Source of the DNA: Lysobacterales bacterium
GTDB lineage: Bacteria > Pseudomonadota > Gammaproteobacteria > Xanthomonadales > Ahniellaceae
Direction of reading: 5' to 3'
Assembly (NCBI GenBank): GCA_016703225.1
Contig: JADJCM010000001.1
Coordinates: 832,088-872,087, forward strand
DNA: 40,000 nt
Below, piece after piece: positions 28,044-39,617 of this stretch. The stretch's first letter is position 1. Each line of letters begins with the position of its first letter. Position numbers and translations under genes: made by a program. The notes under the pieces were generated by a model. It saw only the letters and a program-made list of their open reading frames with translations, did not search any database and had not been told where the DNA came from.

Positions 28044-28988
28044 TCAGCCACGATCCAGCGGGCTCAGCAGCCCGACCGGCCCGCGATTGAGCACGTGCGT
28101 GTAGATCTGCGTGGTCGCCACGTCCTCATGCCCGAGCAGTTCCTGCACCGTGCGAATGTCGGCGCCGGTTTCGAGCAGGTGCGTCGCGAAGCAATGGCGC
28201 AGCGTGTGGCAACTGGCGCCGCGCTCGATACCGGCGAGGCGCAATGCACGCTTGAGTGCACGCTGCAGCAGGTCCGGGTTCAGGTGATGGCGGCGCTCGA
28301 CACCCAGGCGCGGATCGAGGCTGCGCGACGCTGCCGGGAACACGTATTGCCAGCCCGGCTCACGCGCCGCATTCGGATACTTGCGCGCCAGCGCATGCGG
28401 CAGGAATACCGCACCGAACCCCGCGCGCAGGTCCGCCGCGTGTATTGCCAGCGCCCTCGCCACGGCGTCACGCAGCGCATCCTGCGATTGCCGCGGCAGC
28501 ATCGTCACCCGGTCCTTGCCGCCCTTGCCATCGCGCACCAGAATCTGGCCGCGCTCGAACTCAATGTCCTTCACGCGCAGCCGCACGCACTCGGAAACGC
28601 GCATGCCGGTGCCATACAGCAGCCGGATCATCGGCGCATACGTCGGCTCCAGTGCCTCCAGCACGCGCCGCACCTCGCCCACGCTCAGCACCACCGGCAA
28701 CCGCGCCGGCCGCTTCGCGCGCACCACCGACTCCATCCACGGCAACCGCACACCCAGCACCTCGCGATACAGGAACAGCAACGCCGCCAGCGCCTGGTTC
28801 TGCGTCGACGCCGCCACATCGCCCTCAACCGCGAGCCGCGACAGGAACACCTCGACCTCCGCCCCACCCATCTCGCGCGGATGGCGCTTTCCATTCGCCA
28901 GGATGAAGCGACGGATCCACCCGCAATACGCCGCCTCGGTCTTCAGGCTGTAATGCTTGACCCGGATCCGCTCCCGCACCTGATCCAT
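28044..28988 (-). CDS. intI: integron integrase
   Basis: [29 protein letters not shown] is the N-terminal core-binding part. Catalytic R (GTGMRVSEC), [12 protein letters not shown] and [14 protein letters not shown] (Tyr) are present. The IntI-specific insertion is [38 protein letters not shown]. The start is set at ATG 28988 (314 aa), although the tracked ORF stays open upstream to 29315. Confidence 0.9.
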   Translation of the reverse strand: [314 protein letters not shown]

Positions 28989-28998
28989 CAACCGCGGC

Positions 28999-29079
28999 CC
29001 CGACGCCGACGCCGACGCCGACGCCGACGCCGATGCCGATGCCGATGCCGACGCCGATGCCGACGCCGACGCCGATGCC
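28999..29079. repeat. tandem hexanucleotide repeat (GCCGAC/GCCGAT), about 13 units
   Basis: Read directly: CCCGAC, then GCCGAC x4, GCCGAT x3, GCCGAC, GCCGAT, GCCGAC x2, GCCGAT, GCC. It begins 10 nt upstream of the intI ATG. Confidence 0.9.
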
Positions 29080-29259
29080 TTGCCCGCGCCAGTGGCCGAG
29101 CCGGCGGCCGAGCCCGAACTCCTGCCCGCCCCTCCACGCACCCGCCGATCACCCGTTATCCCGTCTCCACCGTCGCGATAAGACATATCCCCACTCCACC
29201 GTCGGACATGCCCCATCGTGCCCCCCTGCGAGCCGCAAGTCCTCAGCGCAAGTCTGGAT

Positions 29260-29346
29260 TCTCCCTGCGAAATTTCTTGACCCGCCCCTTCCCCCCACCA
29301 CAGACTCCCGCCCATAGCCCGACCCTTCCGTCGGAGAATTAGCGTA
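29260..29346 (+). other. attI region (approximate) and attI/cassette-1 junction
   Basis: Unique sequence between intI and the first cassette. Identity to the duplicate cassette starts at 29345 (..AATTAGCG|TAGAAGCG..). Confidence 0.4.
29277..29306 (+). promoter_or_regulatory. candidate cassette promoter (Pc-like)
   Basis: TTGACC (29277-29282), an 18-nt C-rich spacer, then CAGACT (29301-29306). It faces the array about 40 nt before the first cassette. The -10 is weak and this is a by-eye call only. Confidence 0.25.
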
Positions 29347-29542
29347 GAAGCGTTTGTCCGAAGCCTTCCGCCTGCTTGTGCAGTAGGTCATTGCGCCGCA
29401 GGGTGCCGCGTTGTTGCGCGCGGTGGCGCCCTCATGCCGATCTCCTCTTGTTGGCCGCGCGCAGTGTTCGTGCGGTCAAGGGCGCGCGCTTCGAAGGTGG
29501 CCCCAGATCTCGCCGAAAGTTGCTCTGTCGCGAGAGGCCGCA

Positions 29543-29571
29543 TTGACGCGCGGGAACGTTCGTCGCATTGT
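29543..29571 (+). promoter_or_regulatory. promoter-like core of ORF-less cassette 1 (TTGACG-17-CATTGT)
   Basis: Lies inside the conserved block GCCGCATTGACGCGCGGGAACGTTCGTCGCATTGTCCGC (29537-29575). Confidence 0.3.
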
Positions 29572-29681
29572 CCGCACGTCGCAGCGCGCGCGAATGTCGG
29601 GCGGCCGTTCGTCAGTCGCCCACTCGCAGCGGTGCAGTCTCAGCCTTCGTCGGAGGTTCGCGGTTTCATGGGCGCAAACGT

Positions 29682-29771
29682 TTCTAACTATGTGTTCAAG
29701 CCGACCGCCGAGGAAGTTCTTCGTTTCAACCACAGCCTGTCGCGCGGCGGCGGCTTAACACGGCGTTAGCG
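29682..29771 (+). repeat. attC, cassette 1 (type A, 90 bp)
   Basis: TTCTAACTATGTGTTCAAGCCGACCGCCGAGGAAGTT...GTCGCGCGGCGGCGGCTTAACACGGCGTTAGCG. Confidence 0.85.
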
Positions 29772-29964
29772 TCGATTGCCCGTAGCCTTTTCTCAGGTTG
29801 TGCACCAGGTGAGCGTGTCGCAATCTGGCCGCGTGATCGTCGGCGCGCTCCATCGAGTTCGGGCTGTCGAGTGTTGTTCGTGGTCGCGTGCGCGCGGTCA
29901 TCGCTCGGCGCTTCGTTCACGCCCCAGAGCTCGCGAGTCTCTTCTTCATCGCCAGCTTGCCGCA

Positions 29965-29993
29965 TTGACGCGCGGGAGCGTTCGTCGCATTGT
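29965..29993 (+). promoter_or_regulatory. promoter-like core of ORF-less cassette 2
   Basis: The same 39-nt block at 29959-29997, with one A>G change. Confidence 0.3.
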
Positions 29994-38175: not shown

Positions 38176-38292
38176 ATTCAACCGGACCCGCTACGGCAGG
38201 CCACCTTGGCCCGGTTGGCGGTACGCCGTACATTCTCGCCAACCGGGCCAAGGCGTCCTGCCTCCGCGCGCCGGTTACCTCAAACGTTGGGC
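38176..38292 (+). repeat. attC, cassette 15 (heterologous type, 117 bp)
   Basis: R'' is ATTCAAC (38176-38182) and R' is GTTGGGC (38286-38292). An internal perfect palindrome is CCTTGGCCCGGTTGGCG / CGCCAACCGGGCCAAGG. The sequence is unrelated to the type A/B sites. Confidence 0.7.
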
Positions 38293-38343
38293 GGCACCGT
38301 TTTCCCCCAGCCCGACCATCGCATTTCGAAAGGCACACTCGTC

Positions 38344-38790
38344 ATGGCTACTGGTACTGTCCAGCTTCACCGCGTGCTGCGCGCACCGCCGGCGCGCGTC
38401 TATCGCGCTTTCCTCGACGCCGATGCAATGGCCAAGTGGCTGCCGCCGAACGGCTTCACCGGTAAGGTCCACCAGTTGGACGCCAAGGTCGGCGGTACCT
38501 ACAGGATGTCTTTCACAAGTCTCGCAACGGGCGCCAGTCACTCCTTCGGCGGCGAGTACCTGGAGTTGGTCCCTGACGAGCGCATCCGCCATACGGACAG
38601 GTTCGATGACCCAAACTTGCCCGGCACGTTGGTGGTAACCGTGTCGCTGAAGAAGGTCTTCTGCGGAACCGAGCTGAACATCCTGCAAGAAGGCATCCCC
38701 GAGGTCATCCCCGTTGAGGCCTGCTATCTCGGCTGGCAAGAGTCCCTCGCGCTGCTGGCAATGCTCGTCGAGGCCGAGATCCCAAGCTAA
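38344..38790 (+). CDS. cassette 16: SRPBCC/AHSA1-like protein (148 aa)
   Basis: The start is moved to ATG 38344. VYRAFLDADAMAKWLPPNGF, GGTYRMSF and GEYLELVPDERIRHT are typical of the AHSA1 (PF08327) pattern. Confidence 0.75.
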   Translation: MATGTVQLHRVLRAPPARVYRAFLDADAMAKWLPPNGFTGKVHQLDAKVGGTYRMSFTSLATGASHSFGGEYLELVPDERIRHTDRFDDPNLPGTLVVTVSLKKVFCGTELNILQEGIPEVIPVEACYLGWQESLALLAMLVEAEIPS

Positions 38791-38799
38791 AAAAGTGCC

Positions 38800-38889
38800 G
38801 CCCAACCCGTCGTTCAATCCGACCGCCGTGGAAGTTCCGCGTATCATCCACACGCCGTTGCGCGTCGACGACTGAGCACGGCGCCAGTC
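38800..38889 (+). repeat. attC, cassette 16 (type A-derived, R' core mutated)
   Basis: GCCCAACCCGTCGTTCAATCCGACCGCCGTGGAAGTT...GACTGAGCACGGCGCCAGTC. GTTAG is replaced by GCCAG. Confidence 0.65.
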
Positions 38890-38906
38890 TGTTTGCGGAG
38901 GTCAAG

Positions 38907-39149
38907 GTGGCCATTTCCATTCTTTGGTTCTTGTTTGCCATTGGCGTCATCGCGTTTGCCCTTGCCTTCGCCCGGCCAAAGTCTGGGCGCGGTGGTTCAG
39001 CGCGCGGCACGGACGCATACGGATCGAGTAGCTGGACCGCCTCTTCCGACTCATCGACGCATGACTCGCGCTCGTCGTGCGACTCCGCCGGCGACTCGTC
39101 GAGTGGCGGCGATTGCGGGGGCGGCGATGGTGGCGGTGGTTCCGACTAG
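38907..39149 (+). CDS. cassette 17: small membrane protein with Ser/Gly/Asp/Cys-rich tail (80 aa)
   Basis: GTG start. One TM helix (ISILWFLFAIGVIAFALAFA) is followed by a low-complexity SSGGDCGGGDGGGGSD tail. Confidence 0.45.
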   Translation: MAISILWFLFAIGVIAFALAFARPKSGRGGSARGTDAYGSSSWTASSDSSTHDSRSSCDSAGDSSSGGDCGGGDGGGGSD

Positions 39150-39192
39150 GCTGCGCCAGCACGTGCAAGCCGGGCCGAACCCTGCGCCTTTG

Positions 39193-39283
39193 GCTTCCTC
39201 CCTCGCTTCAGCCCGACCGCCGAGGAAGTTGCGCGTATCATTCGAGCACCGTCGCGCGGTGACGACTGAACACGGCGTTGAGA
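39193..39283 (+). repeat. attC, cassette 17 (type A-derived, R'' lost, R' GTTGAGA)
   Basis: ..CGCTTCAGCCCGACCGCCGAGGAAGTTGCGCGTATCATTCGAGCACCGTCGCGCGGTGACGACTGAACACGGCGTTGAGA. The CTAAC core is absent. Confidence 0.6.
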
Positions 39284-39287
39284 CTCC

Positions 39288-39617
39288 ATGAAGCACTTCC
39301 TCGCGATTTCCGGCTTGCTGCTTTGCCTGGCATTCGTTGCGTGTGCGCAACCGGAGCCGCGCGACGCCGCCTCCCCGACATTTGAGTGCGCCGACTCTCT
39401 GGATCGGGCTGACGGGCAACCTCGAACGAAGACGTATTGCCAGATGCGAACCGAGTACTGCTACGAAGCCACGGGTGGGCCAGCACTCAGCCATGGTGCG
39501 CAGTGTCGGCTTCTGCCGAAGGACAACCCGACGTGTGCGGGGATTGTGCTGCTGCCCGGCGGCTCCTGCAGTGGCGACGTCTCGACGGGAATTCGCGTGA
39601 GCTTTGCCTTTCCGTGA
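39288..39617 (+). CDS. cassette 18 (last, no recognisable attC): Cys-rich lipoprotein (109 aa)
   Basis: Lipobox MKHFLAISGLLLCLAFVAC. The ATG lies 5 nt after the GTTGAG core of attC 17. Confidence 0.55.
   Translation: MKHFLAISGLLLCLAFVACAQPEPRDAASPTFECADSLDRADGQPRTKTYCQMRTEYCYEATGGPALSHGAQCRLLPKDNPTCAGIVLLPGGSCSGDVSTGIRVSFAFP

Follow-up and report, generated by a model that had tools for sequence, protein, structure and literature searches.

Integrons are organised around an integrase, IntI, a tyrosine recombinase that carries an IntI-specific extra domain and whose substrate is the folded bottom strand of attC sites, with an R box, an unpaired spacer, an L box and two extrahelical bases. Recombination between two attC sites leads to cassette excision, and insertion takes place at attI, beside a promoter that reads into the array. 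Mobile integrons carry heterogeneous attC sites. For sedentary chromosomal integrons, a threshold of more than 19 attC sites, reportedly proposed by Cury et al. in 2016, is sometimes applied, the alternative being presence in every strain of a species. Chromosomal integrons are said to have been described in Xanthomonas by Gillings et al. in 2005. According to a more recent study of these integrons, many Xanthomonas lineages have an inactivated intI (Colombi et al., 2025, PMC12444791).

Here, a 40,000-nucleotide stretch from a Lysobacterales bacterium was analysed (hereafter the window; positions 832088-872087 of contig C1 of genome G000, a 1.95-Mb contig in a 4.36-Mb genome that is 99.99% complete). 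With high confidence, the locus at 28044-39617 of this window is a canonical, largely intact sedentary chromosomal integron; its host, from soil or groundwater, belongs to the Lysobacterales and is Rhodanobacteraceae-like. The integron is sedentary by its location and by the homogeneity of its attC sites, it is of medium size and recently active, its distal end is decaying and its attI site is possibly damaged. Its status as a complete integron follows from the IntI-specific domain, the conserved attI region and a structured attC array that diverges from intI, and its sedentary status from a chromosomal contig of such length, an intact intI in 6/6 good-quality congeneric genomes, flanks syntenic in two congeners, homogeneous attC sites and a brnTA toxin-antitoxin cassette. 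The earlier note on this DNA, made from the letters only, had proposed a complete sedentary chromosomal integron, and the integrase domain, attI region, divergent array and syntenic chromosomal location all agree with that proposal.

The integrase gene intI lies on the minus strand (28044-29186, with a possible start at 29186 and a core ATG at 28988). In an NCBIfam profile search, its product scored 469.5 bits with the "integron integrase" model TIGR02249 (cutoff 265), the match covering positions 1-314 of the 315 in the model, and it also matched Pfam Phage_integrase and the SAM-like N-domain. The protein aligned end to end with the Vibrio cholerae integrase VchIntIA/IntI4 (PDB 2A3V, residues 3-319; E 3e-96). 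In this alignment, the IntI-specific segment KYPNA...RRHH is gapless and collinear with that of Vibrio IntI4, and the catalytic R, K, HxxR, H and Y are the same as in 2A3V (within GTGMR, GKGGKDR, HTLRH, LGH and IYTHV). Hence the tyrosine-recombinase residues and the IntI-specific insertion that had been read from the sequence were recovered, and the loss of this domain relative to VchIntIA, which had been named as a ground for abandoning the proposal, was not observed.

The array comprises 17 attC positions, all on the plus strand and divergent from intI: 13 intact sites of 90-94 nt (79-111 bits with a covariance model), one site split by an insertion sequence (IS) into 14 + 76 nt (36580-36593 and 37551-37626; 69 bits for the 3' part), one unrelated 117-nt site behind brnTA (38176-38292) and two distal relics (38800-38889 and 39194-39283). 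Nine distinct intact sites were folded as bottom strands, together with the 117-nt site and the two relics. All nine adopt the same structure (z -2.1 to -4.5), in which an R box of 5 bp (CTAAC/GTTAG) is followed by three unpaired spacer nucleotides and by an L box and stem with extrahelical G and T. The 117-nt site forms a near-perfect hairpin (z -8.7). The relics keep the central family sequence and have lost the R and L boxes and the hairpin (z -0.5 and -1.2, respectively, 28-29 bits each), the first of them reading GCCAG instead of GTTAG. Therefore, the 17 one-orientation palindromic sites of the earlier note hold as positions, whereas only 14 of them can fold, in addition to the split one. 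Its family of 14 sites of about 90 bp, in types A and B, was found again as the 13 intact sites and the split one. Indeed, 14 of the 17 sites belong to one 90-nt family, the mean column identity over 11 distinct sites is 84%, and all 242 pair cells (22 pairs in these 11 sites) are standard, as compared with 26-52% paired in slid controls. Two subtypes, A (GCCGACCGCCG...CGGCGGCGGC) and B (GCGGACCGCGC...GCGCGGCCGC), are distinguished by compensatory changes at four pairs.

With the covariance model, 14 sites were retrieved in the window (69-111 bits, all on the plus strand). Applied to 80 foreign intI loci, the same model retrieved 201 sites, 56-117 nt long, of which only two were not on the strand opposite to intI; this independent check indicates that it captures the generic attC architecture. 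A relative whose IntI is 93% identical (locus L001) holds three attC sites that score 108-110 bits and are members of this 90-nt family. At gathering thresholds, nothing in the whole window was matched by Rfam 15. These results bear on another reading, in which the repeats would be ordinary palindromes of the genome, of the repetitive extragenic palindromic (REP) type, that happen to stand beside an unrelated Xer-type recombinase. REP-like tandem repeats are indeed present just outside the locus, at 27828-28042. However, the recombinase passes the integron-integrase model and has the extra domain, the RYYYAAC and GTTRRRY cores run in a single direction and bracket single open reading frames (ORFs), and oriented arrays were obtained beside intI in 80 other genomes. 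Besides, outside the array the genome holds such sites only in two small clusters without integrase and as a handful of single or weak matches. The REP-like reading is almost certainly wrong. The clusters without integrase (CALINs) lie at C2:240744-242739 and C2:406803-409243, the lone sites at C1:803858 and C3:133746 and the weak match at C1:1150032; intI itself is present in one copy in the genome. In the regions C2:240744-242739, C2:406781-409554 and C1:803858-804820, which hold the CALINs and one lone site, several of these adjoin fragments of the IS1111-type element that is also found in the array.

The integron was then placed among its relatives. The closest IntI sequences come from metagenome-assembled genomes labelled Lysobacterales (93%) and Rhodanobacteraceae (83%), whereas IntI of named genera, among them Rhodanobacter, Luteimonas and Pseudoxanthomonas, is about 65-69% identical. 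An intact intI is found in 6/6 good-quality genomes of the genus, one in each, at 83-93% identity. Two congeners, G017 and G016, have the ortholog of window 12572-15412 directly next to intI, and in G017 orthologs of C1:879294 onward in the genome studied here lie beyond an array of about 8 kb. Since orthologous flanks abut intI or the array in these congeners, the site of the integron is considered ancestral. The surroundings also include lineage-specific DNA, about 12.6 kb on one side (window 15412-28043) and about 8 kb on the other. A comparison with about 90 other loci, congeners included, gave no cassette in common, except for the IS and one match of 42% at the amino acid level. An intact and syntenic intI in the genus, together with the absence of shared cassettes, points to a sedentary platform with fast cassette turnover.

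An integron carried by a transposon, a plasmid or an integrative element and recently acquired would explain why the roughly 12.6 kb from intI to the nearest conserved flanking gene are genome-specific and why IS fragments are present. Set against this are the chromosomal nature of the 1.95-Mb contig, the single intact intI of each of the six congeners, the orthologous flanks on both sides in G017 and the homogeneity of the attC sites, where mobile integrons would have heterogeneous ones. A recently acquired mobile integron is thus very improbable, and a sedentary element remains the preferred reading. As to the genome-specific stretch itself, it includes two aldehyde dehydrogenase genes (25428-27790), and two tandem REP-like units of about 101-104 nt each (GTAGGAGCGACCCCGGTCGCGACC...) stand directly downstream of the intI stop codon.

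Recent activity was assessed at the insertion point. The intI-attI intergenic region (29187-29344, plus strand) was delimited by alignment with relatives and contains a promoter-like element and attI (CGTCGGAGAATTAGCG/TAG). The six congeners read CGTCGGAGAATT(G/A)G(C/T/A)GTTA(G/T) at attI (also ...GAATTGGCGTTAG), and their sequences diverge directly after it, which locates the crossover. The conserved sequence CGTCGGAGAATT.GCG is present in the window, where attI reads CGTCGGAGAATTAGCGTAGAAGCG and, from TAGAAGCG on, is identical to cassette 7. The 5' junction of cassette 7 itself is GTTAGAAGCG, and positions 33132-33139 read GCGTTAG. Since an exact copy of cassette 7 occupies position 1, the insertion at attI must be very recent; recent activity of the integron is deduced from this copy and from the lack of cassettes in common with congeners. 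A candidate for the array promoter (Pc), TTGACC-N18-CAGACT, is found on the array strand at 29277-29306, that is 38-67 nt before the crossover. It is conserved in relatives and fails a strict consensus scan.

Several points weigh against a canonical and functional sedentary integron. Firstly, the attC covariance model was built from the window's own sites and is circular within the window. Secondly, the attI crossover (29340-29349) reads GCGTAG, with a GTA triplet, as compared with GCGTTAG and GTT in the six congeners, so that attI may be crippled or the assembly may have dropped a T. The base missing from the invariant triplet falls exactly at the junction with the duplicated first cassette, apparently the latest insertion; its loss could be an assembly error, the trace of an imprecise insertion event or a lesion that cripples attI. 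Thirdly, with a pair of decayed attC sites at its distal end and another site split by an IS, the array is frozen in part. Lastly, the promoter role considered below for the gene-less cassettes relies on a weak -10 element, CATTGT, which fails the strict scan.

Taken to their end, such observations would describe a fossil integron, in which an attI without its GTT cleavage triplet no longer captures cassettes and the array is a static, decaying gene island. The GTA triplet in place of the GTT of six congeners, the two distal relics that do not fold and the dead IS that splits one attC are in line with this description. Conversely, intI is intact with every catalytic residue, and because 13 attC sites are structurally perfect, excision and shuffling by attC x attC recombination remain possible. 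Moreover, cassette 7 recurs without any difference at position 1, which testifies to a very recent insertion at attI, and the T is missing precisely at that junction, where it may be a by-product of one event or a homopolymer assembly error. On balance a fossil integron is unlikely, and a recently active sedentary integron with a decaying distal end is preferred.

Along the array, 17 cassettes are bounded by attC sites, mostly with a single gene and promoter-less, and are followed by one ORF that has no attC behind it. With 17 attC positions, of which 14 fold, the array is below the criterion of more than 19 sites. Its G+C content is 0.598, as compared with 0.663 for the genome. About 18 cassettes had been announced, out to position 39617: 17 stand as bounded cassettes, and the last ORF (39288-39617) is left without an attC. 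Beyond 39284, the covariance model had no match in the rest of the window, nor in the 8 kb of contig that follow it. This terminal segment (39282-39617, plus strand; G+C 0.64-0.65) encodes a 109-amino-acid Cys-rich putative lipoprotein and may be a last cassette or a native gene.

Four cassettes (1, 2, 6 and 7, all on the plus strand) form one gene-less family of about 422 bp. Cassette 1 (29345-29769, attC 29682-29771) is 100% identical to cassette 7 (33140-33561, attC 33474-33563), the identity extending over 29345-29769 and 33137-33561. Cassette 6 (32719-33139, attC 33052-33141) and cassette 2 (29770-30193, subtype-B attC 30102-30195) are 93% and 74% identical to cassette 1, respectively. 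A coding function was rejected: the copies differ by 1-5 frame-breaking indels, their substitutions (16/12/10) have no codon periodicity and all long ORFs enter attC. No conserved ORF was found across the copies. Divergence in the family is uneven. A 34-nt core, ATTGACGCGCGGGA(A/G)CGTTCGTCGCATTGTCCGC, is kept throughout except for one A/G position, and an upstream block of 20 columns retains just 3/20. The core reads TTGACG-N17-CATTGT on the array strand, and in cassette 2 a hairpin followed by a T-run (30019-30041) is found 25 nt after this promoter-like core. Concerning RNA structure, the three distinct copies provide four compensatory pairs on the plus strand and one on the minus strand, which is too thin a basis for a conserved fold. 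Rfam gave no match at E <= 1 on 28990-33600, including for sRNA-Xcc1-like and riboswitch families.

Outside the array, at C3:409350-409422 on the minus strand, the core and its flanks recur as a fifth copy, which is partial and stands between two convergent genes. This copy could represent a small-RNA gene with kinship to the gene-less cassette. Its neighbours encode a DUF481-like outer-membrane protein and a 760-amino-acid protein, and a hairpin follows the core. It is kept in a metagenomic near-relative (L086, 2282-2314), at the orthologous chromosomal locus and not as a cassette. No further copy of the 34-nt core was found in 40 genomes of the family or 400 genomes of the order. A further reading would make the four gene-less cassettes mobile units, with a promoter or small-RNA role, that stem from an intergenic element of the chromosome. 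The precedent that fits best comes from Vibrio superintegrons, where most gene-less cassettes were shown to be sense-strand promoters; a heading in the results of that paper states that such promoters are not identifiable in silico (Blanco et al., 2024, PMC11014356). Because of this latter statement, the view that the gene-less cassettes act as promoter or small-RNA units, which comes from sequence comparison, is put forward as tentative, at somewhat less than even confidence. Two other explanations compete with it, namely decayed cassettes kept through recent duplication and a regulator-binding module.

The remaining cassettes, also on the plus strand, carry genes. Cassette 3 (30194-30847; subtype-B attC 30760-30849) encodes a 188-amino-acid membrane-anchored protein (30199-30765), which gave a weak, sub-threshold Rieske-like match (TIGR01416, E 6e-6; 26 bits, where the cutoff is 97). 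Cassette 4 (30848-31446; attC 31359-31448) encodes a DUF2199 protein (30855-31364; PF09965, E 1e-47). Cassette 5 (31447-32718; attC 32632-32720) is oversized, with 1272 bp, and its G+C of 0.52 is lower than anywhere else in the array; it encodes a 164-amino-acid protein of no known family with an N-terminal transmembrane segment (31796-32290), and the covariance model matched no internal attC in it even with filters off. Six single-gene cassettes, 8-13, follow at 33562-36232, with 90-nt attC sites ending at 33972, 34287, 34727, 35304, 35757 and 36232. They encode, in this order, proteins of 106 and 64 amino acids, a putative lipoprotein of 116 amino acids, a DUF695 protein and two proteins of 117 and 129 amino acids, each with a Cys motif and a transmembrane segment. 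That these last two (cassettes 12 and 13) might be paralogues was ruled out (E = 1). Cassette 14 (36233-37624) encodes a 113-amino-acid protein of no known family (36233-36574) and ends with the IS-split attC.

Cassette 15 (37625-38292), which ends with the 117-nt attC, carries brnT (37662-37940) and brnA (37937-38173). The two products, a BrnT (DUF497) toxin and a BrnA antitoxin, match their own Pfam models (PF04365, 104.4 bits against a cutoff of 34.5, and PF14384, 38.2 bits against 26.1), which bears out the toxin-antitoxin cassette already proposed, and the gene order is that of a type II system, brnT preceding brnA with a 4-nt overlap (37937-37940). According to the promoter scan, the only strict sigma-70-like promoter of the array, TTGCAA-16-TACAAT at 37628-37655, precedes brnT. 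At the attC of this cassette, the crossover is ambiguous, falling in GTTGGGC (38286) or perhaps in GGTTACC (38271), and there is an asymmetric loop between the R and L boxes. Both cassettes that follow end with a decayed attC: cassette 16 (38293-38887) encodes an AHSA1/SRPBCC protein (38344-38790; PF08327, E 7e-26), and cassette 17 (38888-39281) an 80-amino-acid protein (38907-39149) with a transmembrane segment, a Ser/Gly/Asp-rich region and a weak, sub-threshold YxzE-like match.

With Pfam and NCBIfam, 5 of the 15 cassette proteins could be assigned to a family (DUF2199, DUF695, BrnT, BrnA and AHSA1/SRPBCC), which reproduces the count of five among about 15 given earlier. The cassettes hold no antibiotic-resistance gene and no recognisable defence gene. 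The anti-phage content hinted at in the earlier note finds no support, since the PADLOC-DB 2.0 defence models gave 0 matches at E <= 0.01 among 16 ORFs. Nevertheless, the lack of a match does not amount to a lack of defence function, because, according to recent experimental work cited by Colombi et al. (2025, PMC12444791), Vibrio integrons hold many defence cassettes that lack an annotation.

The IS that interrupts the attC of cassette 14 is a defective 957-bp element of the IS1111 type (IS110 family; 36594-37550, minus strand; PF01548). Its subterminal inverted repeats of 13 bp are ATGGACTCCTCCC and GGGAGGAGTCCAT. What is left of its DEDD-type transposase is 206 amino acids long (36875-37495), with about 165 internal residues missing, and scores just below the gathering cutoff of PF01548 (E 5e-6, 26.8 bits against 29). 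A comparison with a congener copy of about 1.49 kb places the loss of about 500 nt between ...AMIEA.RAI and VYCRTLLIQG; owing to this loss, the element should be unable to move by itself. The insertion point in attC is a fixed one, close to an end of the site, and the target was not duplicated. Copies of about 1.49 kb sit within the congeners' own arrays, and fragments of the element adjoin other attC sites of the genome. In the full-size copy of the G017 array (L095, 1192-2677), the transposase is distributed over two overlapping frames of 199 and 268 amino acids, which could reflect either a frameshift mutation or programmed frameshifting.

A group of IS1111 elements that target attC has reportedly been described by Tetu and Holmes in 2008 and by Post and Hall in 2009. 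The IS110-family DEDD transposase, the 13-bp subterminal inverted repeats, the site- and orientation-specific insertion at a fixed point of attC and the copies in congener arrays are shared with this group, whereas the copy in the window is defective, without about 500 nt of its transposase gene, and its Pfam score is below gathering. Such elements are cited in the Xanthomonas integron paper (PMC12444791), and the targeting of the group is now ascribed to a seekRNA (Siddiquee et al., 2024, PMC11187229).

Coming back to the integrase, a 423-amino-acid ORF starting at 29315 is probably too long, since TIGR02249 and the structure begin at Met 28988, from which the core extends over 314 amino acids. 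The motif GGAGTGGGGATATG (an SD-like GGAG, that is a Shine-Dalgarno-like sequence, 7 nt and ATG), at 29186 here, is in frame and stop-free to the core in 7/7 species of the genus, and its ATG precedes the core by 28, 28, 28, 61, 65, 66 and 101 codons. The codon aligned to 28988 is CTG or CTT in four of these seven species, and in most other Lysobacterales intI genes the first ATG lies 10-29 codons upstream of the aligned core. Judging from this conservation, the start of intI may well be the ATG at 29186, which would give a protein of 380 amino acids with an extra N-terminal tail of 66. The tail holds an (Ala-Ser)n stretch from a (GCCGAY)n microsatellite (about 28995-29090). Its codon-position G+C is not coding-like, GC2 exceeding GC3 because it is rich in Ala, Ser and Gly. 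In several relatives a TTG stands one codon ahead of the core, which counts against translation of the tail, and the conserved DNA upstream of the core could instead be regulatory. On these sequence features, the chances that the tail is translated appear evenly balanced. It is a quite unlikely extension that the integrase of this genus starts upstream with a low-complexity tail of 28-101 residues, variable by slippage, that tunes its level or activity. If true, this tail would represent a contingency-type control of cassette shuffling.

In the history that we propose, the integron platform would have been inherited vertically within the genus and have been active recently, while the distal end of the array would have entered decay. 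The attC-targeting IS1111-type element would have struck one site and later lost the core of its own transposase. The brnTA pair may stabilise the array, and the four gene-less cassettes might serve the downstream cassettes as internal sense promoters or small-RNA units, a role as tentative as the nature ascribed to them above.

The locus leaves the current picture of integrons unchanged. What it contributes is an integron with clear bounds, from a genus of Lysobacterales that has received little study. Its 90-nt attC family is clean and its attI was delineated by a comparison of seven species, so that it constitutes a useful reference for the annotation of integrons beyond Vibrio and Xanthomonas. 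Three small oddities, the gene-less cassette, the base loss at attI and the IntI tail, bear on the expression and regulation of sedentary arrays.

As compared with the chromosomal integrons of Xanthomonas, the locus shares the bacterial order, a single ancestral chromosomal intI per genome and species-specific arrays that are mostly of unknown function, with few toxin-antitoxin and recognisable defence cassettes. It differs by its neighbours, aldehyde dehydrogenase genes here and ilvD in Xanthomonas, by an IntI that is no more than about 60-68% identical to those of other Lysobacterales genera, and by an intI that is intact in all good-quality genomes of the genus, whereas that of many Xanthomonas lineages is inactivated, according to the study cited at the outset (Colombi et al., 2025). 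With the Vibrio cholerae superintegron (VchIntIA/IntI4 and its VCR sites), it has in common an IntI fold and extra domain that align end to end, a homogeneous attC family, toxin-antitoxin cassettes and gene-less cassettes. It is distinguished from it by 17 cassettes instead of about 180, by attC sites of 90 nt instead of about 120 nt, by a single toxin-antitoxin pair and by gene-less cassettes whose promoter activity is here only putative.

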